DNA of 64,000 nucleotides from an uncultured bacterium (GCA_903831805.1 CAIKZD010000009.1:8786-72785), one strand, 5' to 3'; counted from the first letter of the stretch, positions 3,603-56,356 are shown. The notes: a model not told the origin generated them from the sequence alone. A program made the numbers and translations.

Positions 3603-5318
3603 ATGAATTGGAAAATCAAAACGGGGAATGGCCGCGTGAAAAATACTTTAGCGGAAAAATATCATCCGGTGGTGTTGCAACTTTTGGCCGATCGGGGTAT
3701 CAGCGAAGAAGAGGATATTGAAAAATATTTCGGTTTTGACTATGACGAATGTTTGGGAGACCCATTTTCGATATCCGGCATGGCAACGGCCGTGAGCCGG
3801 ATCGAAAAAGCACTGAAAGAGGGGGAGCAGGTGGCGATTTATGGAGATTATGATGCGGACGGCGTGACAGCCACGGCCGTTTTGAAAGAGACACTGACGG
3901 AAGTCGGATTTCCAGAGGTGTTGTGCTATTTTCCGGATCGTCAGACGGAAGGCTACGGCTTGAATGAAACTGCGTTGGAACAGTTGAAAAAACAAGGCGC
4001 CAAACTAATCATCACGGTGGATTGCGGGATAACCAATGTGGCGGAAGTGGAAAAAGCCAAAGCCTTAGGGCTGGAAATTATCATCACCGACCATCACCAT
4101 GCGCCGGCCAAACTGCCGGACGCCGTGGCCCTCATCAATCCGAACATTCCGGACAGCGGATTTGCTTTTAAAAATTTAGCTGGCGTGGGAGTGGCTTTCA
4201 AACTGGCCCAGGCCATCTATGAAAAATTAGCTCCGGAAAAAGTCGAGCAGCTCAAGTGGGCTTTGGACTTGGTGGCCATTGGCACCATTGCCGACTGCGT
4301 GCCACTTTTGGGCGAGAATCGAATCTTGGTGAAGTATGGGCTGATTGTCCTTTCGAAAACCCGCCGGGCGGGCCTCTTGGAAATGTTCCAGGTGGGACGC
4401 ATCGATATTTCAGAAAATAAGGTGCCTAATGCACATACGGTGGCTTTCCAGATCGCGCCACGAATCAATGCCGCCGGGCGCATCGACCATGCCAGTGCGT
4501 CATATAATGTTTTGGTCGGCAAAGATCCAGTGGAGGCGCGCATGCTGGCCTTGGAATTGGAAGACAAGAATCAAAAAAGGCAAAAAATCACCACAGAAAT
4601 TTTTCGCGAAGTGCAAATTCTGGCCAACAATTCTTTTAAGGATAGAAATTTTATTTTTGCTGAAAGTCCGCATTGGCCGATGGGCATTTTGGGGCTGGTG
4701 GCGGGAAAAATCACCGGAGAATTCGGCAAACCGTCTATGGTGTTGGCGCGCAAGCCCGGCATATTTTCCGGCTCGCTCCGCAGCGTGCCGGCCGTCAATC
4801 TGATGGAAATCATCACCCGCTGTTCCAGTCTGGTGGAAAGATTTGGGGGACATTCTCAAGCCGCCGGGGTGAGTGTTTTGCCTGAGAACTTGGAAAAATT
4901 TTGCGCTCAAATGACCGCGGAAGTGGACAAAGAACTCGCCGGCAAAGAAATTGTGGCGTCGCTGGAAATCGACTCTGAAATTTCAGCGGGCGATATCGGT
5001 TGGGAATTGGTGGACGCCCTGAAAAAGATGGAGCCGTTCGGGGAAGGCAATCGGCAGCCGGTTTTTTGCGCGAAAAATTTTGTGGTGGTGGATGTGAAAA
5101 TCGTGGGCAATGGACAAAAACATTTGAAACTGGCTTTGCGAGGGGAAGCTGGCAGCCCGAAGATTTTTGACGCCATTGGATTTTCCCTGGCGGAAAAATT
5201 TCCGGATCTTAAGAATGGTGATAAACTAGACATAGCTTTTAACTTGGAAGATGATGAATGGAACGGCAATCGAAAGATTCAGCTGAAGATAATCGATTTA
5301 AAGTTAGTGGCGGAGTAA
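3603..5318 (+). CDS. recJ: single-stranded-DNA-specific exonuclease RecJ
   Basis: 571 aa. DHH-family motifs (GDYDADGVTATAVL, ITDHHH) and DHHA1-like C-terminal domain. Confidence 0.85.
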   Translation: MNWKIKTGNGRVKNTLAEKYHPVVLQLLADRGISEEEDIEKYFGFDYDECLGDPFSISGMATAVSRIEKALKEGEQVAIYGDYDADGVTATAVLKETLTEVGFPEVLCYFPDRQTEGYGLNETALEQLKKQGAKLIITVDCGITNVAEVEKAKALGLEIIITDHHHAPAKLPDAVALINPNIPDSGFAFKNLAGVGVAFKLAQAIYEKLAPEKVEQLKWALDLVAIGTIADCVPLLGENRILVKYGLIVLSKTRRAGLLEMFQVGRIDISENKVPNAHTVAFQIAPRINAAGRIDHASASYNVLVGKDPVEARMLALELEDKNQKRQKITTEIFREVQILANNSFKDRNFIFAESPHWPMGILGLVAGKITGEFGKPSMVLARKPGIFSGSLRSVPAVNLMEIITRCSSLVERFGGHSQAAGVSVLPENLEKFCAQMTAEVDKELAGKEIVASLEIDSEISAGDIGWELVDALKKMEPFGEGNRQPVFCAKNFVVVDVKIVGNGQKHLKLALRGEAGSPKIFDAIGFSLAEKFPDLKNGDKLDIAFNLEDDEWNGNRKIQLKIIDLKLVAE

Positions 5319-5334
5319 TCAACAATCGTTTATA

Positions 5335-8067
5335 TTGCGCGATAAAATTATGGACAAAAAAGAATATTACTCCTTTTCCCTAGAAGACATCGTGGCTGAA
5401 TTCAAAACCTCTCAACTGAAAGGCTTATCTGGCAATGAGGCCGAAGGAAGACTGGCGGAATACGGCAAAAATCAAATCGATAAAAAACAAAACTGGCGCT
5501 GGCTCAAACTGTTCGGCGGTCAGTTCAATGACGCCTTAGTCTGGATCCTGCTGGTGGCCGCCGGGCTGGCTTTTATTTTTGCCGAATATCGGGATGTGAT
5601 CATTATTTTGATCATTGTTGGATTAAATTCCATTATTGGTTTTGTCCAGGAATTCAAAACGGAAAGAATTTTGGATAGTATAAAAAAACTGACCACTGAT
5701 CAAACGCAAGTTATTCGGGACGGCAAGAAGCAAGAGGTGGATGCCAAACTGATTGTGCCGGGCGATCTCATTTTTGTGGCAGAAGGCGACCGGGTACCAG
5801 CGGATGGCTACCTCGCGGAAAGCTATGACCTGAAAGTGAATAGCTTCATCTTCACCGGAGAATCGAAGCCGGCCAATCGATCGACGAAAGTTTTGACGGG
5901 TCGCAATATTCCACTGTCAGACATAGACAATATGCTTTTCATGGGAGAAACCGTCGCTCGGGGCGAAGGAAAATTCATCATCACCGGTACCGGGATTGAT
6001 ACGCAGCTGGGGCATATTGCTCATTTGACCGGCGAGCTGCAAGATTCTTTGACGCCGATGCAAAAGCAGATGCGTCAATTGGGCAAAGATGTCGCCGTCG
6101 TGGCCGTCATGATCGGAGTCGCCGTCATGATCGGCGGTCATTTTTTAGGCATGTCTTTGTATAGTAATTTTATCTTTGCTCTGGCTTTGGCGGTGTCCAT
6201 CGTGCCAGAAGGCTTGCCGGCGGCCATTTCCGTGGCCCTCACGCTGGGCATGAAGCGGCTCTTGAAGCACAATGTTCTGGCGAAAAAATTGAACGCGGTG
6301 GAAACTCTAGGTTCGGTTTCCATAATCTGCAGCGATAAGACCGGCACAATCACTAAGAATGAATTGACAGTTACAAAGCTGGTGATCAATAACCAGATTG
6401 TAGCGGTCAGTGGCGTCGGGTATGCGGCAGAAGGTCATTTTTTAATGGAGGACAGGGTAGTCAATCCGTTTGAGATAAAAAATTTGGAATTGCTTTTCCG
6501 GATTGGTACGCTCTGCAACGACGCCAGTATAATTTTGCGTGATTCCCGGCGGATGGTGGTGGGCGATCCCACGGAAGGGGCGATTATTGTGGTTGGCGAG
6601 AAATATAATCCTAAGGAAAATTATTATACCACCGGAGAAACGAAAATCACTGAGAATCCTTTTTCTTCCGAGCGGATGAGAATGAGTGTCGTTTATAAAA
6701 ATGCCGAAACACTGTCACTGGTCAAGGGTTCGCCGGATGTTATGATTGATTTATGCGACTCAATCAAGATGGATGGTGAAATTTTGCCTTTTACGGAAGA
6801 GGCCAGAGCTAAAACCAAACAGCTGTATAATACCATGTCAGCTGAGGCGCTACGCGTGCTGGCTTTTGCTTATCGCGATTTAGCGGGAGTACCAAGCGAG
6901 CAATATGCCGCGGAGGCAGAAAAAAATTTGACTTGGGTTGGGATGATGGCCATGATTGATCCGCCGCGGCCGGATGTGGAAGAGGCCATTGCGCAATGCA
7001 AGCAGTCCGGCATTAAGGTTGTGATGATTACGGGGGATTATGAAATAACGGCTGGGGCGATTGCCAAAAAAGTCAATTTGATCGGAGAGGCTGGGAGTTA
7101 TGAAATAATCAACGGGAAAAAACTGAATGATTTGAGCGATAAGGAGATTTATCAAAAAATCAGCAAAAAAGATATTGTTTTCGCGCGCATTGCGCCTGAG
7201 CAAAAACTGCGGATTGCGACTATCCTCAAAAAGAATGATCAAATCATTGCTATGACGGGCGACGGCGTCAATGATGCGCCAGCGTTGAAGCGCGCGGACG
7301 TGGGGGTGGCGATGGGCATAATCGGGACGGATGTTTCCAAGGAAACAGCCGATATTATTTTGCTGGATGATAATTTCGCTTCCATCGTCCGTGGCATTGC
7401 CGAAGGACGGACGATTTATAGTAATCTGAAAAAGTTTGTACATTATGTTTTTACGGCTAATGCCGGCGAGCTTTTGACGGTAATTTTCGGGGTCGTTCTG
7501 CAGATCCCCACCCCGATTATCGCGGTCCAGATCCTCGCCATTGATTTGGCCACGGACGTCTTGCCGTCTTTCTCTTTGAGTTTGGAGCCGGCGGAAAAAG
7601 GGGTGAATAAAAAAATCAAAAATTCCAGCGGCGGGATTATGAGTGGGAAAAAAATCTGGCGCATAATTTACCTGGGTTTGATCATGGCTGCCGGGGCGGT
7701 GGGCGCCTTCATCTGGTCCATGCTGCGCGGGGGGTGGCATTGGGGCGGCGCAGTTGACGAAAACAGCCTGCTCTATATCCGCTCGACCACTGCGACGTAC
7801 GCCGTTCTAGCTATGACCCAAATGGCCAATCTTCTGCAGTCGCGCAGCGAGAAATTCACGCCGTCCGAGCTGGGATTTTTCAAGAATAAATTTGCCATCG
7901 GCTCAATCATTGCTTCTTTTCTGATTTTACTTATATTGATGTACGCACCATTTTTTCAAAAATATTTGCGTTTTAGCCCGATCCGCTGGCAGGATTGGCT
8001 GATGGTCGGCGCCACTACTCTAGCTGTGTATGTTTTTGAAAGCGTGCGGAAAAAAAGATGGGCGTAA
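5335..8067 (+). CDS. P2-type cation-transporting ATPase (Ca2+-ATPase-like)
   Basis: 910 aa. ICSDKTGTIT phosphorylation site, MTGDGVNDAPAL hinge, PEGLP transmembrane motif. Confidence 0.85.
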   Translation: MRDKIMDKKEYYSFSLEDIVAEFKTSQLKGLSGNEAEGRLAEYGKNQIDKKQNWRWLKLFGGQFNDALVWILLVAAGLAFIFAEYRDVIIILIIVGLNSIIGFVQEFKTERILDSIKKLTTDQTQVIRDGKKQEVDAKLIVPGDLIFVAEGDRVPADGYLAESYDLKVNSFIFTGESKPANRSTKVLTGRNIPLSDIDNMLFMGETVARGEGKFIITGTGIDTQLGHIAHLTGELQDSLTPMQKQMRQLGKDVAVVAVMIGVAVMIGGHFLGMSLYSNFIFALALAVSIVPEGLPAAISVALTLGMKRLLKHNVLAKKLNAVETLGSVSIICSDKTGTITKNELTVTKLVINNQIVAVSGVGYAAEGHFLMEDRVVNPFEIKNLELLFRIGTLCNDASIILRDSRRMVVGDPTEGAIIVVGEKYNPKENYYTTGETKITENPFSSERMRMSVVYKNAETLSLVKGSPDVMIDLCDSIKMDGEILPFTEEARAKTKQLYNTMSAEALRVLAFAYRDLAGVPSEQYAAEAEKNLTWVGMMAMIDPPRPDVEEAIAQCKQSGIKVVMITGDYEITAGAIAKKVNLIGEAGSYEIINGKKLNDLSDKEIYQKISKKDIVFARIAPEQKLRIATILKKNDQIIAMTGDGVNDAPALKRADVGVAMGIIGTDVSKETADIILLDDNFASIVRGIAEGRTIYSNLKKFVHYVFTANAGELLTVIFGVVLQIPTPIIAVQILAIDLATDVLPSFSLSLEPAEKGVNKKIKNSSGGIMSGKKIWRIIYLGLIMAAGAVGAFIWSMLRGGWHWGGAVDENSLLYIRSTTATYAVLAMTQMANLLQSRSEKFTPSELGFFKNKFAIGSIIASFLILLILMYAPFFQKYLRFSPIRWQDWLMVGATTLAVYVFESVRKKRWA

Positions 8068-9574: not shown

Positions 9575-9734
9575 CCTGTCATTCTGAGCGAAGCCTGTAC
9601 TCAGGCGTAGTCGAAGAATCTGCTTTGTATAACCAGTAGTTTTCCTATAAATCGTAAGTCTTGTGGTAACCACGGGCAGATCCTTCGACTGCGTTCGTCG
9701 CCTTGTCGGCGACTCACTCCGCTCAGGATGACAG
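9575..9734 (+). repeat. 160-bp hairpin/MITE-like repeat element, copy 1 (terminal inverted repeats CTGTCATYCTGAGCGRAG; inner inverted repeats AGTCGAAGAATCTGC/GCAGATCCTTCGACT)
   Basis: About 88% identical to 44199..44356. Starts 2 nt after the HlyD stop codon. Confidence 0.8.
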
Positions 9735-9778
9735 CTTTTACTATTTACTGAAGTAACTTTTTTAGCAGGTAAAAAACT

Positions 9779-10504
9779 ATGACGCCTCTTATCCAAGTGC
9801 AAAACATGAGCAAGACTTATGCCTCAGAGGGCGTGGAAACTAAAGCGCTATCCCGGGCTGATTTTCAAGTGGAAAAAGGGGAATTTCTGTCCATTATGGG
9901 GCCGAGTGGCAGTGGAAAATCAACCTTGATGCAAATCTTAGGTTTTTTGGATCATCCGACTGGCGGCCAATATCTATTTGAAGGACGCGATATCGCCGAT
10001 TTTTCGGCGGATGAGTTAGCGAGTACTCGCAACAAGAAAATCGGTTTTGTTTTTCAGTCGTTCAATCTGTTGCCGCGCACGAGTGTTTTTGAAAATGTGG
10101 AATTGCCGCTGCTCTATGATCAACAACCGGATGGCAAGAATTATGACAAAGTGATGGCCGCTCTCCGCTCGGTCGGCATGGAGCATCGGGAAAAATATCT
10201 TTCCAACCAGCTGTCCGGCGGCGAGAAACAGCGTGTGGCCATTGCGCGCGCCTTGGTCAATGATCCGGAACTGATTTTCGCCGATGAGCCGACGGGGAAT
10301 TTGGATTCGCACTCCGGTCTCACCGTGATGAAAATTTTGCAAGGCCTTAACAATTCCGGACACACCGTGATTTTGGTGACGCACGAAACTTACACGGCCG
10401 AACATGCCAAAAGAATAATTTATATCAAAGATGGACAAATTGTGGCGGATGACCCGGTCAAAAATCGTCGCATCGCGGAGGGCGAGACGGAACTGCTCAA
10501 ATAA
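9779..10504 (+). CDS. ABC transporter ATP-binding protein (MacB/LolD type)
   Basis: Walker [10 protein letters not shown], signature [15 protein letters not shown], Walker B. Confidence 0.85.
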
Positions 10505-10511
10505 TTTTCTT

Positions 10512-11759
10512 ATGCACATTCTTTCTCCTATAAAAATTTCCTACCGGTATCTGATGGCGGCCAAGTTCCGCTCTTTTTTAACGATTCTGGGGATCATTAT
10601 CGGAGTGGCGAGTGTCATAATCATTATGGCCATGGGACGTTCGGCGCAGGCGCTCATTTTGGATCAAGTGACGGGTATCGGGTCGAACCTACTAGGAGTT
10701 TTGCCAGGAGCTTCTGACGAAAAAAGTCCGCCACCGGCGGCGATGGGCATTGCCGTCACGACCTTGAAATACGGCGATCTGCAAGCGCTTAGGAATGGGC
10801 GCAATGTGCCGGAAGTGATTGATGCGGCCGGCTATGTCATTGGGACGGCTACCGCCGTCTATAACGGCACCAGCTTGAGCGCTTCTTTCGAAGGTACAAC
10901 GGCCAGCTATATTAATGTGGAAAATGCGGCGGTAGCCACGGGGCGTTTTTTCACTAAAGACGAAGAGATGGACATGTCGCGCGTGGCGGTGCTGGGGGAA
11001 AACGAAGCCAAGGATCTTTTTCTGGGAGCTTCGCCGCTTGGCAAAGTGATAAAGATAAAAGAAGAAAATTTCACGGTCATCGGCGTTCTGAAAAAAAGAG
11101 GTTCGAGTGGGTTTGGAGTGACCAGTCAGGATGATGCAATTTTTGTGCCACTTAGAACGGCCCAAAAAATTCTGCTTGGCATTGATCATCTGGGCTTTAT
11201 CCGTTTGAAAGTGAGCGATGCCAAATTTGTGCCGCAAGCCAAGGCGGAAGTGGCCACGACTCTGCGGGAACAACATCACATTACCGATCCGACCAATGAT
11301 GATTTTTCGGTGCGGGATATGGCTTCCGCCATCGAAATTATCACCCAAATCACCGACGTGCTCAGATATTTTCTCCTGGTGATCGGCGCGATTTCGCTTT
11401 TGGTCGGCGGCGTAGGGATTATGAATATTATGCTTTTGGCAGTCAGTCAACGGATTCGCGAAGTGGGGCTGCGGAAAGCGGTGGGAGCGCGGGACGCGGA
11501 TGTGCAAGTGCAATTTTTGATCGAGTCGGTTTTCATTTCCGGCCTCGGCGGCATCATTGGCATTCTGATTGGCATAGCCTTTTCCTTTTTAGTGGCGACG
11601 ATTATGCAGTATTTGCAATATACTTGGCCCTTCATCATTTCCTGGCAGTCTGTGGCGGCGGCCACGGCTGTGAGTGTGGGCATCGGCATTGTTTTTGGCA
11701 TTTATCCGGCTCGTAAGGCGGCCGAGATTTCTCCGATGGAAGCGCTGAGATACGAATAA
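10512..11759 (+). CDS. ABC transporter permease, MacB-like FtsX family
   Basis: N-terminal transmembrane helix, large periplasmic domain, C-terminal FtsX-like 3-helix transmembrane domain. Start moved to ATG 10512 (MHILSPIK) to avoid overlap with the ATPase. Confidence 0.75.
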   Translation: MHILSPIKISYRYLMAAKFRSFLTILGIIIGVASVIIIMAMGRSAQALILDQVTGIGSNLLGVLPGASDEKSPPPAAMGIAVTTLKYGDLQALRNGRNVPEVIDAAGYVIGTATAVYNGTSLSASFEGTTASYINVENAAVATGRFFTKDEEMDMSRVAVLGENEAKDLFLGASPLGKVIKIKEENFTVIGVLKKRGSSGFGVTSQDDAIFVPLRTAQKILLGIDHLGFIRLKVSDAKFVPQAKAEVATTLREQHHITDPTNDDFSVRDMASAIEIITQITDVLRYFLLVIGAISLLVGGVGIMNIMLLAVSQRIREVGLRKAVGARDADVQVQFLIESVFISGLGGIIGILIGIAFSFLVATIMQYLQYTWPFIISWQSVAAATAVSVGIGIVFGIYPARKAAEISPMEALRYE

Positions 11760-13068: not shown

Positions 13069-15096
13069 ATGGTGGTAGAATATCATTATGATTATTTAAG
13101 CACAAAAAAAATGATACAAAAAACATTGCAAAAACTAGGTGCTGTTTTGAAAAAAGATGAACGGCTTTTGGCGGATGATGGTAAAATATTAAAAAACCAA
13201 GCTGTAGAATTAGTGAATAAGCTTGATGAGGGCTTAATTGATCTTTTAGCTAGCGACAAAGATCTTAAAAAAATATTTTTCAAGAAAATCGGCGAGATGA
13301 TGGTTTTTGACAAAGATTTGTTCATTGAATTTGTGAGCAATAAGGAATTTTTGCCGGATTCATATACGGCGTTCAAAAACAAAATCGGCTTTGAAATTGG
13401 TGGTCAATATTTGAAATCTCAAAAAGAGGTAGTTTTGGTGTGGCCGTATAAAGATTGCATCTTAGAAGGTGGTCAAACCAAAGAAGATGCCAAGCGCAAG
13501 GAAATTTTTTGGAATGAAACGCTGGCACCGGACGATGTCAATCGTTTGCTGGAGGCGAAAGTGCTCACGAATTGGAAAAGGTATGACAAAGACAATCTCA
13601 AAAACGGACATGTCGTCACGGAAATCAAAGACACCGACAATTTAATCATCAAAGGCAATAATCTTCTAGCGTTGCATTCACTCAAGAAACGTTTTGCCGG
13701 CAAAGTGAAACTGATTTACATTGATCCGCCCTACAACACCGGAAATGATAGCTTTGGCTATAATGATTCTTTCAATCATTCTACGTGGCTGACGTTTATG
13801 AAAAATCGGTTGGAAGTTGCGAGGGAGCTATTGTCAAATGATGGTAGTATATTTATTTCAATTAATCATTTAGAGCTGGGGTATCTGATGGTTTTGATGG
13901 ACGATATTTTTGGAATTGAAAATAAATTGCCAATAATAACATTGAAAGCTGGCACAACAGCAAGTTATAGGGCGATAAATGAGTGTCCTGTGAATGTCTC
14001 GGAGTATGTTTTATCGTATAGAAAATCTTCAAATTATGTTGCTAATAGAATTTATCGAGAAACTAAATATAGCGAAGATTATTCTTATTTTATAAAAAAT
14101 AAAAATGATAATTCCGAAAAATGGATTATCGAAAAAATTGACGATATTATTTATAAAAATAATAAGTGTGATAATTGGAAAGACTTTAAGGATAAATTTG
14201 GACCAACATGGAAAAATGACAGGCTTAAATTAAAAGAAAACTTTGCTTTAGAGAATTCTGATAAAGTAGTTAGTCTAAATACATTGCAAAAACCGTCGAA
14301 AGATGTGCAAATAATTATTGAGAAATCGAAAAACAATAGAAATAAAGTATTTTCTTATAAAAGAAGCGATAAGAATGATATCCATTGTTTTAATGGCAGA
14401 ACATTGGCTTTTTTATCATCTAAGTTTAAAAATATTAATGGAAAAAATGTTCTTGCGGAAATAGTAACAAATTTATGGGATGATATTTCTTTTCTTAGTC
14501 TTGGCTCAGAAGGTGGTGTTGATTTGATTAATGGTAAAAAGCCAGAAGCGTTGATTAAAAGAATTGTTGACATATCAACTTTAAAAAATGATGATATAGT
14601 ATTAGATTTTTTTGCTGGCGCAGGAACAACTGGCGCAGTGGCGCATAAAATGGGACGTAAATACATCCTGGTTGAGCAATTGGATTACATTCACGATCTT
14701 CCAGAATCTAGAATGAAAAAAGTCATCGAAGGCGAACAGGGTGGAATTTCCAAGGCAGTCAATTGGAAAGGTGGCGGGAGTTTTGTGTACACCGAGTTGA
14801 TGCCAGTCAATGAAAAGTTTGTGCGAGAAGTGGAAAATGTGAAAAACAAAAAAGAAGTTTCCGATCTTTGGAAAAGGATTGAGAGGAATGGATTTTTGAG
14901 TTATCGCGTGGACGAACAAAAATTCCACAAAAATGCCAAGGACTTTTCTGATTTGTCACTCGAAGAGCAAAAGAAATTCACTTTGGAATCACTGAACAAA
15001 AATATGCTGTACGTTCCGATTAATGAAATTGAGGACAGTAGTTATAAAGTTAGCAAAGATGATATTAAGTTGAATGAAGAGTTTTATGGGGAATAA
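13069..15096 (+). CDS. mod: Type III restriction-modification Mod subunit (N6-adenine DNA methyltransferase, beta class)
   Basis: IYIDPPYNTG (motif IV) precedes an AT-rich variable target-recognition region, then DFFAGAGTTG (motif I). Followed by Res helicase. Confidence 0.8.
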   Translation: MVVEYHYDYLSTKKMIQKTLQKLGAVLKKDERLLADDGKILKNQAVELVNKLDEGLIDLLASDKDLKKIFFKKIGEMMVFDKDLFIEFVSNKEFLPDSYTAFKNKIGFEIGGQYLKSQKEVVLVWPYKDCILEGGQTKEDAKRKEIFWNETLAPDDVNRLLEAKVLTNWKRYDKDNLKNGHVVTEIKDTDNLIIKGNNLLALHSLKKRFAGKVKLIYIDPPYNTGNDSFGYNDSFNHSTWLTFMKNRLEVARELLSNDGSIFISINHLELGYLMVLMDDIFGIENKLPIITLKAGTTASYRAINECPVNVSEYVLSYRKSSNYVANRIYRETKYSEDYSYFIKNKNDNSEKWIIEKIDDIIYKNNKCDNWKDFKDKFGPTWKNDRLKLKENFALENSDKVVSLNTLQKPSKDVQIIIEKSKNNRNKVFSYKRSDKNDIHCFNGRTLAFLSSKFKNINGKNVLAEIVTNLWDDISFLSLGSEGGVDLINGKKPEALIKRIVDISTLKNDDIVLDFFAGAGTTGAVAHKMGRKYILVEQLDYIHDLPESRMKKVIEGEQGGISKAVNWKGGGSFVYTELMPVNEKFVREVENVKNKKEVSDLWKRIERNGFLSYRVDEQKFHKNAKDFSDLSLEEQKKFTLESLNKNMLYVPINEIEDSSYKVSKDDIKLNEEFYGE

Positions 15097-15636: not shown

Positions 15637-16116
15637 ATGGCACAAAGATTTATTTATCCCAAAGAATTTATAAAAGACACTCTTATTGAAAAAATAGGTA
15701 AAATTATTCATGTTGATGCTTATCTATCTTTTTTATTAATATGTTCAGGAATTGAATTTTTAGGAAAGTGTATAGACTCAACTGAAAAATGGGAAGAGGG
15801 AAATAGCGGCGAACAATTTAAAACAGCAATTATAAAACTATTTCCAGATGGCTATCATAATTTAGTAAATGATTTATATAAAGACTTGCGATGTGGATTA
15901 GTTCACAGAATTATACCTGGATCAATATCATTAACTCAAAATGGAAATGATAATGATGGCGAAATACCATATAGATTGCATCCATACTTGAAAGATAATA
16001 AAAAAATTCTTGTTATCGAATATTTTTACTTTGATTTTGTGGAGGCTTGTAAAAAAGTTTTAGCTATGAATTTTAATGAAAATAAAATGACCAAGCCAAT
16101 GTTATCAGTTGGTTAA
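15637..16116 (+). CDS. hypothetical protein, possible HEPN-like (Rx4H: RCGLVHR)
   Basis: 159-aa ORF between mod and res. Confidence 0.4.
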   Translation: MAQRFIYPKEFIKDTLIEKIGKIIHVDAYLSFLLICSGIEFLGKCIDSTEKWEEGNSGEQFKTAIIKLFPDGYHNLVNDLYKDLRCGLVHRIIPGSISLTQNGNDNDGEIPYRLHPYLKDNKKILVIEYFYFDFVEACKKVLAMNFNENKMTKPMLSVG

Positions 16117-37972: not shown

Positions 37973-38032
37973 TTGACAACTTTTTTAAATTGGTTAAAAT
38001 ATGAATTAGCACTCACACTTGACGAGTGCCAG
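37973..38032 (+). promoter_or_regulatory. promoter (TTGACA-16-TAAAAT) followed by CIRCE-like operator TTAGCACTC-N9-GAGTGCCAG
   Basis: CIRCE consensus is TTAGCACTC-N9-GAGTGCTAA. Sits directly upstream of hrcA. Confidence 0.65.
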
Positions 38033-39807: not shown

Positions 39808-41733
39808 ATGGCAAAAATATTAGGTATCGATTTGGGAACAACTAACTCAGCCATGGCTGTGGTGGAAGGCGGCAGTCCGACTATTTTGGAAAATAAGGAA
39901 GGAGTGCGCACGACGCCTTCGATTGTAGCGATTTCAAAATCCGGCGAACGTTTGGTGGGGCTTTTGGCCAAGCGCCAAGCGGTCACCAATCCGAGTAACA
40001 CTTTGTATTCCATTAAGCGTTTGATCGGCCGCGCGTTTTCGGACGAAGAAGTGCAGCGCGATATGAAACTGATGCCGTATAAGATCGAGCAAGCTGGCGG
40101 CAGTGTGAAGATCAAGATGGGGGATAAGGATTATACTCCGCAAGAAATTTCGGCCATGATTTTGGGCAAGCTCAAGGCGGACGCGGAAGAGAAATTGGGT
40201 GAAAAAATCACTGAAGCGGTCATCACCGTGCCGGCCTATTTTGATGATGCACAAAGAAAAGCCACTAAGGAAGCGGGCGAAATTGCGGGCCTCAATGTGC
40301 GCCGCATCATCAATGAACCGACCGCGGCGGCCTTGGCTTATGGTTTCAATAAGAAAAAAGACGAAAAAATTGCGGTCTACGACTTGGGCGGCGGTACTTT
40401 CGACATTTCCATTTTGGAAGTGGGCGACGACACCGTGGAAGTGAAATCGACCAACGGCGACACGCATTTGGGCGGCGACGATTTTGATCAAGTCATCATC
40501 AGTTGGATAATTTCAGAATTCAAAAAACAAGAAGGCATCGATTTGGGCAATGATCCATTGGCTCTGCAACGCATCAAAGAAGCGGCGGAGAAAGGCAAGA
40601 TTGAACTGTCGACGGCCGCCGAAACGGAAATCAATCAGCCGTTCATCACAACTGATGCTAATGGTCCGAAACACTTGGTGATGAAAATGACGCGCGCCAA
40701 ATTGGAAGAATTGGTGGGGGAACTGGTTGCGAAAACTTTGGAGCCGACCAAGAAAGCTTTGGCGGATGCAAAATTGTCCGTAACTGATATCAACGAAGTG
40801 GTGATGGTGGGCGGTATGACCCGCATGCCACTGGTCGTGAAAACGGTGGAAGAATTCTTCGGCAAGAAAGTTAACCTGACGGTGAACCCGGATGAAGTGG
40901 TGGCGCTCGGGGCGGCAATTCAAGGGGGCGTGCTACAAGGTGATGTGAAAGATGTTTTGCTGCTTGATGTTACTCCACTGACACTCGGCATTGAAACGAT
41001 GGGCGGCGTGCGCACTCCGCTCATTGAAAGGAATACGACCGTTCCAACTTCCAAATCGCAAGTCTTTTCCACGGCGGCCGACAATCAGCCTTCGGTGGAG
41101 ATTCATGTTTTGCAAGGCGAGCGCGAAATGGCGGCGGATAACAAAACTTTAGGCCGCTTTATCCTGGACGGCATCCCGCCATCTCCGCGCGGCATTCCGC
41201 AAGTGGAAGTCAGTTTTGACATTGACGCGAACGGTATTCTTAGTGTGAAGGCCAAAGACAAAGCTACGAACAAAGAACAATCCATCCGTATTGAAGCTTC
41301 CAGTGGACTGTCTAAAGAAGAAGTGGAAAAAATGAAAAAAGATGCGGAAGTGCACGCTGAAGAAGATAAGAAGAAAAAAGAAAAAGTGGAAATAAAAAAT
41401 ATGGCGGACACTTTGGTGTTCACCACCGAAAAAGCCTTGCGTGACGCGGGAGACAAAATCACCGCTGAAGAAAAGAAACCAGTGGAAGAAGCGATTGAGA
41501 ACTTGAAGAAAGTTAAGGAGGGCGAGGACGCGGAAGCTACTAAGAAAGCTACCGAAGAACTTTCCCTGGCGGCGCAAAAGATCGGGGAGAAATTATATAA
41601 AGCGGCAACTGATGCACAAGCGGCACAAACTCCGCCGACCGGCGACCCCGCCTCCGCTGAAGCTACGGCAGGCGAAGCAAAAACTGAACCGGAAGTGAAG
41701 GACGCAGAGACGAAAGAGGGAGAGGCGAAATAA
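39808..41733 (+). CDS. dnaK: molecular chaperone DnaK (Hsp70)
   Basis: [18 protein letters not shown], 641 aa. Confidence 0.95.
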
Positions 41734-41740
41734 AAAAAGC

Positions 41741-42510
41741 AAAAAATAGAGCGGACTAGCGGACTGTTCGTCGTAACCGACGGACCGTTCGCTTGGCTTA
41801 TCGTAACCGCGAACGGTCCGCTTATCGGAGTACCTCAAGCGAACAGTCCGCGGAAGTTAGTGAATATGAGTGTTGCAAAATATAAAATAAAAGATTCTTA
41901 TCCAGGTATGGTTTGCCATGTTTATAATAGGGGAGTGAATAAGGAAAAAATATTTAGAGATGAAAATGATTATGTTTTTTATTTGAAAAAAGTCAGGGAA
42001 TATAAGGAAAAATATGAGATAGATGTAATTTGCTATAGCTTTTTGGATAATCATTACCATTACATCCTAGAACAACTAGGAGAGGAGCCAATAACAAATT
42101 TTATGCGCTCGGTTCATACGAGCTATGGACAATATTTCAATAAAAAATATAATAGAGTAGGTCCGCTTTTTCAAGGGAGATTCAAACAGGCAGTACTGAA
42201 TGACAATAATTTTATTTATCTATCCGCTTATGTGAACGCCAATGCTCAAATTCATGGAATTATTGATAAGGCTGAAGAGCATAGGTGGTGCAGTTACCCT
42301 GATTATCTGGGATTGAGAAATGGGACCTTGTGCAATAAAGCAAGAATACTAGATCAGTTTAAGGATATATTGGAGTATAGAGGATTTGTTGAAGAAAATG
42401 TGAAGGAGTTTAAAATTAAAAAAGAAGCAGATAAATTCATACTAGAGGATTGAGTGAATATAACTTAGCGAACGGTCCGCTGATTACAGCGAACAGTCCG
42501 CTAAATTTAG
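41741..42510 (+). mobile_element. IS200/REPtron-like unit: HUH Y1 transposase flanked by inverted REP-like palindrome clusters (GCGAACNGTCCGC / GCGGACNGTTCGC)
   Basis: Left cluster 41746-41853 (4 units, nested inverted) and right cluster 42465-42504 (2 units) in opposite orientation. About 770 bp. Confidence 0.65.
41866..42453 (+). CDS. tnpA: IS200/IS605-family TnpA / REP-associated tyrosine transposase (RAYT)-like
   Basis: HUH motif DNHYHYIL, about 195 aa, flanked by REP-like palindromes. Confidence 0.7.
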   Translation: MSVAKYKIKDSYPGMVCHVYNRGVNKEKIFRDENDYVFYLKKVREYKEKYEIDVICYSFLDNHYHYILEQLGEEPITNFMRSVHTSYGQYFNKKYNRVGPLFQGRFKQAVLNDNNFIYLSAYVNANAQIHGIIDKAEEHRWCSYPDYLGLRNGTLCNKARILDQFKDILEYRGFVEENVKEFKIKKEADKFILED

Positions 42511-42520
42511 TAGAACAATT

Positions 42521-43648
42521 ATGGCGGAAAATTATTACGATTTATTAGGCGTTTCAAAAGGCGCGTCGGACGATGAGATTAAGAAAGCATATCGCCGAGC
42601 GGCGCATCAGCATCATCCGGACAAATCCGGTGGAGATGAGGCCAAGTTCAAAAAAATCAACGAAGCTTATCAAGTTTTGTCTGACAAATCGAAACGCGCG
42701 CAATATGACCAATTCGGGCAAACCTTTAACGGCGGGCAGGGTAGTTTTGGCGGTGGCTCAACCGGCGGTCAAGGCTTTGGCGGATTCGATTTTTCCGGTT
42801 TTGATTTCGGTCAAGCCGGTGGGAGTGGCAATTTTGACGGGGTGGATTTTGAAGATATTTTTTCCAATATTTTTGGCGGCGGCGGAGGCGGAAGTTCACG
42901 CACACGCGGACGTCAATCAGGTCGCGGCCAAGACATTCAAGTGGACATCGAAATCACTTTTGCCGAAATGGTGAATGGCGCACGGAAAAAAGTGCGGCTG
43001 TATAAAAACGCCAAGTGTGATCATTGCCAAGGCAGTGGCGGCGAACCGGGATCGAGCATTAAGACTTGTCCAACCTGTAAAGGCTCAGGCCAAGTGCATA
43101 AAATTACCCGAAGTTTTCTGGGCTCTTTTTCGCAAGTGAGCGTTTGTCCGGAATGCGAAGGGCAGGGCCAGATGTATGAAAAAAAATGCTCAGTCTGCCG
43201 TGGCGATGGGCGAGTGAAGAAAGAAGAAGAGATTGAAATCAATGTGCCCGCCGGCATAGAAAGTGGCCAGACGATTTCGCTCCGTGGGGCAGGCGAAGCG
43301 GGGAAGAATGGTGCGGCTGCCGGGGACTTGTATATTCTTGTGCGAGTGGCCACACATCGCAAGTTTACACGCAGTGGTCTGGATATTCTGAGCCAAGAAG
43401 AAATCAGTTTTTCCATGGCGGCGCTCGGTGGCGAGATTGGGATTGAAACTATTGAAGGTAATTTGATCTTGAAAATTCCGACTGGCACACAATCGGGTGA
43501 AACGTTCCGGATTAAGAACCAGGGCGTGCCGGATCTGCACGGTCGCGGTCGCGGACATCATTTGGTGAAAATTGTGGTGCGGATTCCGAAGCACATCAGT
43601 CGCGAACAAAAAAGGCTGATTGATGAACTCAAAAATTTGGGGGAATAA
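42521..43648 (+). CDS. dnaJ: molecular chaperone DnaJ
   Basis: J domain YYDLLGV...HPD. Gly-rich linker. Four CxxCxGxG repeats. Confidence 0.9.
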   Translation: MAENYYDLLGVSKGASDDEIKKAYRRAAHQHHPDKSGGDEAKFKKINEAYQVLSDKSKRAQYDQFGQTFNGGQGSFGGGSTGGQGFGGFDFSGFDFGQAGGSGNFDGVDFEDIFSNIFGGGGGGSSRTRGRQSGRGQDIQVDIEITFAEMVNGARKKVRLYKNAKCDHCQGSGGEPGSSIKTCPTCKGSGQVHKITRSFLGSFSQVSVCPECEGQGQMYEKKCSVCRGDGRVKKEEEIEINVPAGIESGQTISLRGAGEAGKNGAAAGDLYILVRVATHRKFTRSGLDILSQEEISFSMAALGGEIGIETIEGNLILKIPTGTQSGETFRIKNQGVPDLHGRGRGHHLVKIVVRIPKHISREQKRLIDELKNLGE

Positions 43649-43696
43649 TTTTTGGGAAAGTTGTGGTATAATATAAAAACAAAATAAAAAAAAATT

Positions 43697-44197
43697 ATGA
43701 ATCTGAATTCTATTCTTGCTCAATTAGGAATCTCAGCCAGCATGACCCAAGATGTTACGTTACTCTTGGCGCTTCTTCTGGTCAGTTTCATCTTCGGAAT
43801 GTTTGTCGGCCGCACTAGGCTCATTACGGTGGTGATCAACACTTATGTGGCGTTTGCCATTCTGGCCGTCATTCCCAAGACTTATCTGACGGATTATAAT
43901 ACGGCGCTTCTGACTTTCTTCGCTCTCTTGGTAGTGCTGACTATTTTTGGCAAAAAGATTTTTGAAATTTCCATTTCCGGCTCCGGCCCGGACTTTCTCT
44001 GGCGGGTGTTCGGGGTGAGTTTTTTGGAAGTGCTTTTGCTGGTCAGTATCGCCATCTCTCTGATGCCCAAAAAAGTCGCCTTGGTCTATGTCTCCAAAAC
44101 GGCTTATGACTATCTGGCCGCACCCAACTTCCAACTGTTGTGGATGGTTTTGCCGCTCATCGGTGTGCTGCTTATCCATAAGAAGCTGAACCGTTAG
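43697..44197 (+). CDS. hypothetical membrane protein
   Basis: 166 aa, 4-5 hydrophobic helices. Confidence 0.5.
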   Translation: MNLNSILAQLGISASMTQDVTLLLALLLVSFIFGMFVGRTRLITVVINTYVAFAILAVIPKTYLTDYNTALLTFFALLVVLTIFGKKIFEISISGSGPDFLWRVFGVSFLEVLLLVSIAISLMPKKVALVYVSKTAYDYLAAPNFQLLWMVLPLIGVLLIHKKLNR

Positions 44198-44198
44198 T

Positions 44199-44356
44199 TG
44201 TCATTCTGAGCGAAGCCTGTACTCGGGCGCAGTCGAAGAATCTGCTTTGTGTAACCACACTAGTTTTCCTATAAATCACAAGACTTGAGGTAATCACGGG
44301 TAGATCCTTCGACTGCGTTCCTCCGCTAGCGCGTCGTCACTCCGCTCAGGATGACA
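44199..44356 (+). repeat. 160-bp hairpin/MITE-like repeat element, copy 2
   Basis: About 88% identical to 9575..9734. Starts 2 nt after the upstream stop codon. Confidence 0.8.
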
Positions 44357-44367
44357 ATATCCTTGTA

Positions 44368-44395
44368 TTGACTAAAATTGCGAGAGTGATATAAT
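44368..44395 (+). promoter_or_regulatory. sigma70-type promoter TTGACT-16-TATAAT driving tRNA genes
   Basis: Near-consensus hexamers 28 nt upstream of the tRNA-like fragment. Confidence 0.6.
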
Positions 44396-44423
44396 GGCAA
44401 AGTTGTTCCATTCATTTAAATAT

Positions 44424-44473
44424 GCGCCTATAGCTCAGTTGGTAGATCCGCCAGCTGGCGGACTTATAGGCGG
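44424..44473 (+). pseudogene. 50-nt tRNA-Lys-derived pseudo-tRNA or mini-tRNA-like element
   Basis: First 24 nt identical to tRNA-Lys (acceptor + D arm). Then a ccgcc-agct-ggcgg hairpin. The 3' end tataggcg pairs with the 5' cgcctata. No anticodon or T arm. Confidence 0.5.
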
Positions 44474-44506
44474 GGATATCATATTTAAGAAATAAAAATT
44501 TACAAT

Positions 44507-44579
44507 GCGCCTATAGCTCAGTTGGTAGAGCAGTTGCCTTTTAAGCAAACGGTCCCTGGTTCGAGTCCAGGTGGGCGCA
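44507..44579 (+). tRNA. tRNA-Lys (anticodon TTT)
   Basis: Cloverleaf: acceptor gcgccta/tgggcgc, D arm gctc-agttggta-gagc, anticodon loop cuUUUaa, T arm cctgg-ttcgagt-ccagg. Confidence 0.75.
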
Positions 44580-44663
44580 CAAATAAAATTTTGAATTTTT
44601 AAAACAGTCTGGAGGCTGTTTTTTGTTTCAATTTGGCTTTTGTTTTACAATCAATTTAACTAG

Positions 44664-44770
44664 CTTCCGCGGACTGTTCGCTTGAGGTACTCCGACAAGT
44701 GGACCGTTCGCGTTTACTTAAAGCTAAGCGAACGGTCCGTCGATTACGACGAACAGTCCGCTCTATTTTT
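44664..44770 (-). repeat. REP/BIME-like palindrome cluster, inverted copy of 41741-41860 (about 90% identity as reverse complement)
   Basis: Reverse complement of cluster 1 aligns along about 115 bp, including linker sequences. Confidence 0.75.
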
Positions 44771-44860
44771 TTAAAAAGTCAACCAATTTGGCTTTTATTT
44801 CTGGTATGGTATAATTAGACGGTGGAAGAAGCATATAATAAAAATGAAAAATTTAAGCAG

Positions 44861-55311: not shown

Positions 55312-55703
55312 AAAAAGTGATGACATTCGGTACATTTGATATTTTCCATCCGGGGCATGCGAGCTATTTGGCACAGGCGAAAAAACTGGGAGAATGTCTG
55401 ATTGTGGTAGTGGCGCGGGATGAAAACGTGGCAAGATACAAGAAACAAGATACAAGAAACAAAGAAAAGGCAAGATTGAGAGTTGTAACATCTAGCGGTT
55501 TAGCGGACTCCGTGGTGCTGGGCAGTTTGCGAAATCAATATGCCGTGATTGAAAAATTCAGACCGGATGTGATTGCACTGGGGTATGATCAAAAAGTGGA
55601 TATGCGCGAACTGAAAAGCAAATTGCAAGAATTCAGTTTGGAAACTAAAATTGTCAGATTGAAAGCGTATAAGCCGGAAGTTTATAAATCGTCAAAATTA
55701 TAA
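55308..55703 (+). CDS. cytidylyltransferase-like nucleotidyltransferase
   Basis: FGTFDIFHPGH (H/TxGH) motif. Contains a 14-bp tandem direct repeat at about 55431-55458. Confidence 0.6.
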   Translation: MKKVMTFGTFDIFHPGHASYLAQAKKLGECLIVVVARDENVARYKKQDTRNKEKARLRVVTSSGLADSVVLGSLRNQYAVIEKFRPDVIALGYDQKVDMRELKSKLQEFSLETKIVRLKAYKPEVYKSSKL

Positions 55704-56245
55704 TGATTGAATCAAAAGAATTAAAAAGATATCTGGACTTCGCCTACGAGGCTTATCAGGAGAATAATATCAGTGAGCCTGATCAGACCTATCGACAAGA
55801 CGGCAAAGTGCCATACATCATGCATCCCATTTGGTGTGCGTCGATGCTGATCGCTGACACGCAAATCCCTTGGAAAGAAAGAGCGTTGGGATTCAAGGCT
55901 TTGATTTTACATGATGTTTTGGAAGACACCGCTTTGGAATTACCGGATTGGGTAGAATCTGAAGTCAAAGAGGTTGTCAAAGAGCTGACCATGGGAAGTT
56001 TTAAGGAGGCGATGGAAAAATATAATGGTAAATCGCCCTTCATAAAGCTGCTTCTGCTGTGTGATAAATTATCCAGCATGTATGAAGATCATGTTGGTGT
56101 ATATAATAATGCTGCCATGAAATGGTCCAAGCGGAAAATCTGGAAAAAATTAACGATAAAAGGCATAGCAGAAGTCGAGGAAGCGTATGGCAATATCAGG
56201 ATTGTTCAAATAGGCAAGGCTATAGTCGAGAATACTGATTGGTAG
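55703..56245 (+). CDS. HD-domain hydrolase (RelA/SpoT-type HD-like, HDVLEDT)
   Basis: MHPIWCASML...ILHDVLEDT. Confidence 0.55.
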   Translation: MIESKELKRYLDFAYEAYQENNISEPDQTYRQDGKVPYIMHPIWCASMLIADTQIPWKERALGFKALILHDVLEDTALELPDWVESEVKEVVKELTMGSFKEAMEKYNGKSPFIKLLLLCDKLSSMYEDHVGVYNNAAMKWSKRKIWKKLTIKGIAEVEEAYGNIRIVQIGKAIVENTDW

Positions 56246-56356
56246 AATGGAGCGCGGACTGTCCGCTTTGGAGAGTGGGATTAAAATAACTTATGTATGA
56301 AAAAAATAAACTGCAAAGCTGAATTTAAGAATAATATAATAAAGTAATCAAATTAT

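Follow-up and report, generated by a model that had tools for sequence, protein, structure and literature searches.

A stretch of 64,000 nucleotides from an uncultured bacterium (GCA_903831805.1, CAIKZD010000009.1:8786-72785), referred to here as the window, carries a Y1 transposase gene, tnpA, between the heat-shock genes dnaK and dnaJ, with short palindromic repeats on both sides of the gene. This locus is probably a module of the TIRtron/REPtron type, that is, a single-copy, vertically inherited class 2 Y1 HUH gene related to the RAYT and TIRYT families, with its cognate palindromes in inverted orientation within 15-70 nt of it. The assignment is based on the anatomy of the locus, the fold and catalytic residues of the protein, its single copy, synteny and purifying selection, and the co-occurrence of gene and palindrome across lineages.

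Anatomy of the locus and the TnpA protein

The window was searched on both strands for GCGAACNGTCCGC with up to two mismatches and compared with 100 shuffled sequences. The search returned 22 strand-matches where 3.95 are expected, a number equalled by none of the 100 shuffles. After dropping double-counted palindromic and weak matches, 10 units of the 13-nt sequence GCGRACNGTYCGC were left, which start at 41759, 41780, 41809, 41839, 42468, 42489, 44669, 44699, 44728 and 44749 and fall into three clusters (41759-41851, 42468-42501 and 44669-44761). The clusters thus lie where an earlier note on this DNA, made from the sequence alone, had placed them. Each unit is a near-palindrome by itself with a conserved GGAC-N-GTCC core, and a two-unit pattern detects exactly five imperfect hairpins ("doublets") in the window, with 0 expected by chance.

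The doublets are either of type A (two 13-nt units with an 8-nt loop) or of type B (two 13-nt units with a 17-nt loop). The left module (41741-41865) begins 8 nt past the dnaK stop codon and consists of an A-rich outer end, hairpin A on the minus strand (41759-41792), hairpin B on the plus strand (41809-41851) and a GGAAG ribosome-binding site 9 nt ahead of the tnpA start codon. On the other side of the gene, a second hairpin A (42468-42501, plus strand), which has the polarity of hairpin B, begins 14 nt past the tnpA stop codon and ends 19 nt ahead of the dnaJ start. The two A hairpins form an inverted pair of 37 nt with 86% complementarity. The remaining doublets, hairpin B on the minus strand (44669-44711) and hairpin A on the plus strand (44728-44761), belong to a third module (44646-44783), which is gene-less and lies 2.2 kb downstream.

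As single-stranded DNA, hairpin A folds with -13.5 kcal/mol on the minus strand and -10.9 kcal/mol on the plus strand and contains a single mismatch at its centre. The left module forms one long composite hairpin, and both four-unit modules reach about -33 kcal/mol (left: -33.1, z = -7.0; third: -32.9, z = -7.5). Across the hairpins tested, the structures were significantly stable (z = -4 to -9). Imperfect hairpins with this kind of strand asymmetry are typical substrates of Y1 enzymes. The hairpin feet are bordered by TA or GA on the 5' side and by T[TA][AG]G on the 3' side, and none of the hairpins matches a family in Rfam.

The gene itself (41866-42453, plus strand) occurs once in the window and encodes a class 2 Y1 HUH protein of 195 aa that is RAYT/TIRYT-like. 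We place its start at the ATG at 41866, where the N-terminus MSVAKYKIK aligns with homologues; the database gene call for the protein (P0001) begins at M16, and exact-protein look-ups with the 195-aa and 197-aa forms gave no match. The protein matches the Pfam family Y1_Tnp (PF01797) with 32.5 bits (cut-off: 23), and the sole NCBIfam model listed is REP_Tyr_transpos (NF047646) with 35 bits, no IS200 model being listed. The HUH motif is formed by H63-Y-H65 and the catalytic tyrosine is Y122 in YVNAN (SAYVNAN). H63, H65 and N126 do not vary among 26 homologues, in which Y122 is conserved to at least 90%; all four residues are also invariant in an alignment of six sequences that includes two plasmid TIRYT-like proteins.

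A search of the PDB with the single TnpA sequence found nothing, and a profile was needed. The profile of the 26 homologues matched E. coli TnpAREP (4er8) with E = 0.003 across the region from the HUH motif to the tyrosine, compared with E = 0.6 for ISDra2 TnpA in the HUH strand alone. An AlphaFold (AF2) model of TnpA (predicted local distance difference test, pLDDT: 90.5) ends in a single long helix (residues 168-194) and gave 4er8 as the first match in Foldseek (E = 2e-6, TMt 0.69, rmsd 3.1 over 150 columns); the transposases of IS608, ISDra2 and IS200 came next. The Foldseek probability was 1.00 for 4er8, 2a6m, 2xqc and 2f4f. Taken together, the NCBIfam model, the profile and the Foldseek ranking of 4er8 indicate that TnpA is a HUH/Y1 enzyme closer to the RAYTs than to IS200 TnpA, in line with the RAYT-like transposase that the earlier note had described, yet distant from the E. 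coli type.

Residence between dnaK and dnaJ and co-occurrence with the palindrome

The neighbours of tnpA are dnaK (39808-41733, plus strand; from the list of open reading frames (ORFs), with an HSP70 Pfam label on the identical gene in L043) and dnaJ (42521-43648, plus strand; Pfam DnaJ, DnaJ_C and DnaJ_CXXCXGXG). The identical protein P0001 is recorded on 14 contigs from several assemblies, and all seven places shown lie between dnaK and dnaJ. Six of them, from separate assemblies, come with DNA (the seventh without) and match the window with 100% identity and in collinear order. A variant junction in L046 (1-78) was rejected as an assembly chimera, in which 78 nt resembling a topoisomerase gene (topA) are joined to the dnaK 3' region via a short shared word.

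Orthologues with 71-75% identity occupy the same hrcA-grpE-dnaK...tnpA...dnaJ interval in L049, L051 and L187, which also holds 1-6 kb of differing accessory genes there. When the same genome pairs are compared, TnpA (71-73% identity) is about as conserved as DnaJ (64-70%), RRF (71%) and HrcA (74%). The nonsynonymous divergence (dN) of tnpA (0.10-0.19) tracks that of dnaJ (0.16-0.26), with the closest genome pair identical for both genes, and the ratio of dN to the synonymous divergence (dS) is about 0.1 or less for tnpA, with dS saturated. For P0013 and P0010, members of a second orthologous group, a single context was found in each case, as also for P0006.

Because of the synteny in four lineages, the dN in step with dnaJ and the low dN/dS, tnpA is not a fresh insertion. 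It behaves like a housekeeping gene and unlike an insertion sequence (IS), and the module has been in the hrcA-grpE-dnaK-dnaJ region since before the four lineages diverged. The earlier note had seen the insertion of a transposase between dnaK and dnaJ as unusual, which is not supported for a gene that is syntenic there in L049, L051 and L187 and diverges in step with dnaJ. The low GC content of tnpA (0.32, versus 0.50 in its neighbours) was considered as a sign of recent transfer and rejected, since the same offset recurs in every lineage.

To describe the palindromes in relatives, the flanks of seven related genes were read (L049, L051, L187, L054, L181, L058 and L056). In six of the seven, palindromic units with the GGAC-N-GTCC core bracket the gene about 5-70 nt from the start and stop codons. 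L049, a Moraniibacteriota metagenome-assembled genome (71% identity to the TnpA of the window), has GCGGACAGTCCGC-7-GCGGACTGTCCGC upstream and the inverse downstream; L051 (73%, dnaK...dnaJ interval) has GCGGACTGTCCGC-5-GCGGACCGTTCGC and again the inverse downstream, and L187 (75%, same interval) follows the same design as these two. In other contexts, L054 and L181 (68% each) carry GGCGGACNGTCCGCC units and L058 (40%) a single CTAGGACCGTCCTAG on each side. The seventh, L056 (52%), has different repeats, which are GC-rich and direct. Outer stem positions change from GCG...CGC to CTA...TAG on both sides of the stem, hence in a compensatory manner. Repeats inverted around the gene, the REPtron layout recognised in the earlier note, were found in all six related lineages whose flanks carry the palindrome, with L056 differing. 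Outside the heat-shock region, the palindromes go with the Y1 gene to recJ or mgsA beside a glycosyltransferase cluster and to a sigma-70/defence-gene region. As they follow the gene into these contexts, they are not signals of the dnaK operon.

Databases hold 662 TnpA homologues, the named ones mostly from Patescibacteria and some labelled RayT by JGI; distant ones are encoded in 18 records of plasmids and in one of a phage. About 25% of species are reported to have class 2 TnpAY1 proteins (PMC6006769). The view that a REPtron would be notable in a genome of the candidate phyla radiation (CPR) is not supported by these numbers, while a literature search found no paper on RAYTs together with Patescibacteria/CPR.

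Beside the fixed Y1 gene, the relatives contain a variable islet (L049: 5230-9600, L187: 5377-11290, L051: 222-1392). Its genes include ORFs of unknown function (221 and 428 aa), a GDSL lipase, NUDIX, Cu-oxidase_4, a saccharopine dehydrogenase, an acetyltransferase and a 23S_rRNA_IVP-like protein.

Gene-less copies of the repeat

The third module lies between the terminator of a tRNA-Lys gene (44601-44622) and the promoter-like site of a BNR-repeat gene (44788-44815). It contains an outer A-run, hairpin A, hairpin B and a 22-nt relic of the tnpA leader and start. As the earlier note had noticed, it is an inverted copy of the left cluster (about 125-133 nt, about 89% identity): arms of 116 nt (41758-41873 and 44647-44762) are 89% complementary and are extended by a perfect 17-nt outer piece (41741-41757 and 44755-44771), which is shifted relative to the arms because the left arm contains an 8-nt tandem duplication (AGCGGACT). 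The longest perfect stretch shared by the arms is about 33 nt. Read from the alignment, the homology does not stop at hairpin B but continues for another 22 nt, reaching the ribosome-binding site and the first tnpA codons, with 17 of the 22 positions identical. A 17-nt direct repeat, CAATTTGGCTTTT(G/A)TTT with an exact 13-nt core, flanks the third module; the copy at 44629-44645 (CAATTTGGCTTTTGTTT, plus strand) adjoins its inner end, and the copy at 44784-44800 (CAATTTGGCTTTTATTT, plus strand) includes TTGGCT, the -35 box in the promoter-like site of the downstream gene.

Enclosed between the left and the third module are tnpA, dnaJ, a membrane ORF (166 aa, no Pfam family), a 157-nt hairpin element and one tRNA-Lys. 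The bracket had been described as holding several tRNA-Lys genes; a tRNA-Lys gene indeed lies inside, but only one is intact (tRNA-Lys(UUU), 44507-44580) and the other is a 25-nt 5' fragment. In L051, which shares the downstream gene order of the window, the third module is absent, which points to a recent, lineage-specific addition. The use of L051 as an empty-site reference for the module was rejected, as the sequence following its tRNA-Lys could not be aligned.

The sequence just outside the left module (41728-41745, AATAAAAAAAGCAAAA) resembles the reverse complement of the third module's direct repeat (44784-44800, AATAAAAGCCAAATTG), which may reflect a preferred A-rich target or a low-complexity coincidence. 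Additional repeat copies were also seen in two relatives. In L054, the upstream two-unit repeat recurs as a 54-nt direct copy with 93% identity 1.36 kb downstream (7812-7865 and 9945-9998), and the copies bracket tnpA, a 153-aa ORF and a methyltransferase. L058 has a 266-nt direct repeat with 94% identity (9675-9940 and 14790-15055) and a duplicated downstream palindrome (10634-10661 and 15715-15742), both 5.1 kb apart, so that the flanks of a Fic gene match those of tnpA on both sides. A cII-like gene and genes for a methylase S subunit, an M78 peptidase and HigB lie in the 5 kb that separate these duplicates.

Copies of the unit were counted in 73 kb, comprising the window and 9.2 kb upstream of it; the longest contig carrying the gene has 294 kb. 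The sole unit outside the 3-kb locus is an exact GCGGACTGTCCGC at 56254-56266, with 0.00 exact matches expected (100 shuffles). This solo unit is intergenic, 9 nt past the stop of the ORF 55703-56245. A one-mismatch match at 53712, inside a tRNA-synthetase gene, is probably due to chance, and the 9.2 kb upstream of the window contain no unit. The earlier note would have been refuted by a palindrome confined to the ends of the element; in these 73 kb it does occur beyond them, but with about one copy per 70 kb only. One outside copy in 73 kb indicates that mobilisation, if any, is rare. Repeats of terminal inverted repeat (TIR) families and Group 1 RAYTs have been described as 'moderately abundant or absent' (PMC3733652, PMC5581495), and the frequency found here is in this regime and not in that of a population of repetitive extragenic palindromes (REPs) or bacterial interspersed mosaic elements (BIMEs).

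The two-unit pattern matched 42 loci in a genome collection, all of them chance matches, mostly in high-GC taxa (Streptomyces and others), and none in a CPR genome; these candidates were rejected. A generalised two-unit pattern matched at least 80 metagenome loci, dominated by tandem GCGGACNGTCCGC arrays from grass-associated metagenomes, and none of the 80 loci listed encodes a TnpA homologue. Among the metagenome matches listed, the only CPR-like contigs are L066, L074 and L089, which carry solo hairpins and no Y1 gene nearby. The arrays in L060-L139 have the form GCGGACNGTCCGC-N9-GCGGACNGTCCGC with a period of about 96 nt and are almost certainly a plant genomic repeat.

Affiliation, mechanism and competing explanations

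TnpAY1 proteins have been split into 12 subclasses (Quentin et al. 2018, PMC6006769), and subclass 2.1 has been equated with the Group 1 RAYTs of Bertels and the TIRYTs of Di Nocera et al. 2013 (PMC6006769). TIRYTs are associated with TIRs, many of them with GGGGWSAS, in place of GTAG REPs (Di Nocera et al. 2013, PMC3733652). We assigned the subclass by motif comparison and by the best annotated homologue. The TnpA motifs NHYH, LFQGRFK (FQ) and Y...N and the conserved serine S143 in WCSY match the second motif line of subclass 2.1 (Table 1 in PMC6006769). The best annotated plasmid homologue (E = 2e-18, 32.5% identity over 80% of the query) is encoded on pSPTER of Sporomusa termitida. This 'transposase' of 295 aa combines Y1_Tnp with a Bac_DnaA_C helix-turn-helix (HTH) domain, and its gene is flanked by 34-nt inverted repeats which start with TTTGGGGTCAGGCC and contain GGGGTCAG, an instance of the TIRYT motif GGGGWSAS. 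Based on this combination, it is a textbook TIRYT. The window motif GCGGACAG agrees with GGGGWSAS at 7 of 8 positions, and the window unit GCGGACAGTCC agrees with GGGGTCAGGCC at 8 of 11.

The locus resembles TIRYTs (subclass 2.1, Group 1 RAYTs) in its class 2 Y1 HUH protein with NH[YF]H, FQ and conserved-Ser motifs, in a gene placed between inverted repeats without GTAG REPs, in the similarity of GCGGACAG to GGGGWSAS and in the low copy number of gene and repeats, and some TIR families also make dimers or clusters. In contrast to them, the protein is short (195 aa versus a median of 238) and without the distal DnaA_C/HTH-like domain, its tyrosine motif reads Y..NA where theirs reads Y..NP, the repeats consist of units that are palindromic in themselves and paired up as hairpins, the host belongs to the Patescibacteria, and the gene is anchored in a heat-shock operon with inheritance that looks vertical. 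RAYTs in general show housekeeping-like behaviour (Bertels et al. 2017, PMC5581495), while higher rates of horizontal transfer have been considered possible for Group 1 (Bertels et al., PMC5581495).

With the RAYTs and REPtrons of the E. coli type (TnpAREP, 4er8; subclasses 2.2, 2.4 and 2.5), the locus shares the nearest solved structure by profile and fold, a single-copy gene with inverted imperfect hairpins at its flanks, two inverted hairpins that make up a REPIN-like composite, and a vertical, housekeeping-like inheritance. It lacks their 5' GT[AG]G tetranucleotide at the hairpin foot, misses the NCBIfam equivalog cut-off and, in the 73 kb covered, has no high-copy dispersed population, the solo unit being the only one outside the locus. 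With these three differences, this is not a classical REP/BIME system, the canonical RAYTs with a REP population being those of subclasses 2.2, 2.4, 2.5, 2.7 and 2.8, and in this strict sense the name 'REP/BIME-like' given in the earlier note does not apply. The IS200/IS605 family (IS200, IS608, ISDra2; subclass 1.1) has the HUH/Y1 fold, an element size of about 0.7 kb and subterminal hairpins with a strand asymmetry due to a mismatch in common with the locus. However, IS200 proteins have DH[VI]H and Y...Q (Y[IV]ENQ) where the window protein has NHYH and Y...N (YVNAN), and they are core-only proteins of about 150 aa, compared with 195 aa including a C-terminal tail here. Furthermore, IS200 occurs in several near-identical copies with its ends on one strand, whereas the gene in the window is single-copy and syntenic, with a conserved inverted arrangement and no tnpB at the locus. 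A closer label than REP/BIME is TIRYT/TIRtron, i.e. subclass 2.1, and the best classification of the locus is as a module of the TIRtron/REPtron type from a branch of class 2 TnpAY1 that is specific to the CPR, lacks the HTH domain and comes nearest to subclass 2.1.

Several observations weigh against this affiliation. Reading of the sequence found no GT[AG]G foot at the hairpins of the window, and the 35 bits for REP_Tyr_transpos are below the equivalog cut-off of 80. The tyrosine motif YVNANA keeps the N but has A in place of the P of class 2 (Y---NP), without being of class 1 (Y---Q); more distant members of the homologue set do have NP (YIHLNP, YIHQNP, YILNNP). No distal C-terminal HTH-like domain (Bac_DnaA_C, HTH_23, HTH_28) was matched by Pfam in TnpA, and the 73 kb contain a single copy outside the locus. 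Finally, Y1 transposition makes no target duplication (IS200/IS605; PMC6006769), and neither the 22 nt of the tnpA 5' region in the third module nor the 17-nt direct repeat is expected from a precise Y1 cut at the hairpin foot.

By analogy to E. coli TnpAREP and to the TnpA proteins of IS608 and ISDra2, TnpA would bind the A and B hairpins where single-stranded DNA is exposed, as at the replication fork, and would cleave beside them via a 5'-phosphotyrosine link at Y122, with a metal held by H63/H65. Strand rejoining could then occasionally copy or move gene-less hairpin modules, while the gene itself would no longer move. The third module would in this way be a gene-less copy of the left end made by the enzyme, and the 56254 unit a solo copy. 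The 13-nt unit is doubled in this lineage into the imperfect hairpins of 34-43 nt with their central mismatch. Seen as gene-less copies, the third module and the solo unit argue for a repeat family that is low-copy here and not a REP population.

It is improbable that the locus is an ordinary autonomous IS200-like insertion sequence of about 0.7 kb which landed by chance between dnaK and dnaJ. Such an element would explain the IS200-sized unit with a Y1 gene and terminal hairpins, the GC content of the gene and the presence of family homologues in several contexts, with distant ones on the plasmid and phage records, and hairpin B(+) and the downstream A(+) lie on one strand as in the IS200/IS605 geometry, which by itself would allow 41809-42501 to be excised in the manner of IS200. 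Population and comparative data speak against this: there is one copy, the identical protein is found at dnaK-dnaJ in every place shown, synteny is kept in four lineages with dN tracking dnaJ and a dN/dS of about 0.1 or less, the GC offset is alike in every lineage and thus a property of the gene, and the hairpins of L049, L051 and L187 are inverted only. The class 2 motifs, the lack of tnpB and TnpAREP as the nearest solved structure point in the same direction. We give similarly little credence to the idea that the palindromes mainly serve the heat-shock operon as signals in RNA or transcription (a terminator, an attenuator or a stabiliser of the mRNA between dnaK and dnaJ) or are operators of a dimeric regulator, with the Y1 gene being incidental. 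The short distances of the hairpins to the dnaK stop and the dnaJ start, the location of the solo unit just past a stop codon, a T-run behind a related solo hairpin in the CPR-like contig L089 and the palindromic nature of each 13-nt unit would all suit signals of this kind. On the other hand, the palindromes accompany the Y1 gene into contexts without heat-shock genes, no T-tract follows the hairpins in the window, a terminator scan gives only one weak site on the minus strand, the hairpins lack a match in Rfam, and the operon has its own operator (CIRCE, controlling inverted repeat of chaperone expression) at a separate site, 38006-38032, for which reason the palindromes were also rejected as CIRCE elements. 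REPs are known to have side effects on RNA and transcription, and a role as signals is not exclusive of a TIRtron/REPtron-type module.

For the third module, and with it the 2.9-kb inverted bracket, the most serious competitor is an origin from a hairpin-stimulated template switch or a segmental inverted duplication instead of the Y1 enzyme, which would leave the bracket functionless; we regard this as a possibility, although not a likely one. It would account for an inverted copy just 2.8 kb from its source that includes 22 nt of non-hairpin tnpA 5' UTR and start, for the 17-nt direct repeat around the copy, as Y1 enzymes make no target duplications, and for the absence of the module from L051, the sole relative with the same downstream gene order. 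Against it, the copy and the left module share the same outer end, and L054 and L058 independently carry an extra gene-less repeat copy 1.4-5 kb downstream, a recurrence that is more easily explained by an activity linked to the locus. The earlier note had further suggested that the two copies could permit inversion. A recombination switch of this kind, with two inverted modules of about 125 nt turning 2.9 kb (tnpA, dnaJ, the membrane gene and tRNA-Lys), is very improbable. The arms are inverted with 89% identity and share the perfect stretch of about 33 nt; nevertheless, the six contigs, which come from separate assemblies, show 100% identity and collinearity throughout the region and offer no inversion isoform, dnaJ and the tRNA would come to oppose an otherwise uniform gene orientation, and no recombinase gene is nearby.

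RAYT and TIRYT proteins are the standard example of domesticated bacterial transposases. As a speculation that we put forward with low confidence, a TIRtron/REPtron-type module of this form might represent a repeat family at its birth. A CPR-specific, HTH-less TIRYT/Group 1 RAYT branch would have turned a GGGGWSAS-type terminal repeat into a self-palindromic GGAC-N-GTCC hairpin and would only recently have begun, in this genome, to release REPIN-like copies without a gene, namely the third module and the 56254 solo unit. The module would have been fixed and selected in the hrcA-grpE-dnaK-dnaJ region of Moraniibacteriota-like genomes, marking a hotspot of accessory genes (4-6 kb in L049 and L187), with repeat copies bracketing accessory genes in relatives (the methyltransferase in L054; toxin-antitoxin, Fic and methylase genes in L058). 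The locus is a compact case in a very small CPR genome, which presents the gene, its cognate hairpins and one or two gene-less copies in one view, and the four syntenic lineages allow the co-evolution of gene and hairpin to be followed. It connects, at the level of sequence, the TIRYT motif GGGGWSAS with a REP-like palindrome and is most useful as a minimal comparative case of how TIRYT repeats become REP-like hairpins. For annotation, it means that no recent IS insertion disrupts the dnaK-dnaJ operon and that the 2.9-kb inverted bracket is without sign of a switch.

Three further features were observed in or near the region. The CIRCE-like HrcA operator at 38006-38032 (TTAGCACTC-N9-GAGTGCCAG, 2 mismatches) marks the start of the hrcA region. 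L051 has a second CIRCE-like site (TTAGCACTC-N9-GAGATTGCTAA) at about 2104-2135, between the tnpA hairpin and dnaJ, where the window has none, and the regulation of dnaJ may therefore differ between the lineages. The 157-nt element inside the bracket, the '160-bp hairpin element' of the earlier note, resembles a miniature inverted-repeat transposable element and is present in two copies of the same orientation (9577-9733 and 44199-44356) with about 90% identity, as judged by eye in the alignment. Its terminal inverted repeats are TGTCATYCTGAGCG...CGCTCAGGATGACA, and a similar element with TGTCATTCCCGCGAAGG...GGATGACA is found in L051 (3368-3547). This element is closer to a dispersed repeat family than the GCGAAC units are. 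The 25-nt tRNA-Lys fragment (44422-44446) repeats the 5' end of the intact tRNA-Lys(UUU) gene without a mismatch, lies 83 nt upstream of that gene and is followed by hairpin-forming sequence. L051 (about 4141-4200) shares this arrangement, with 'gcgcctatagc' and hairpins upstream of its tRNA-Lys, and its conservation in both makes a random duplication unlikely.

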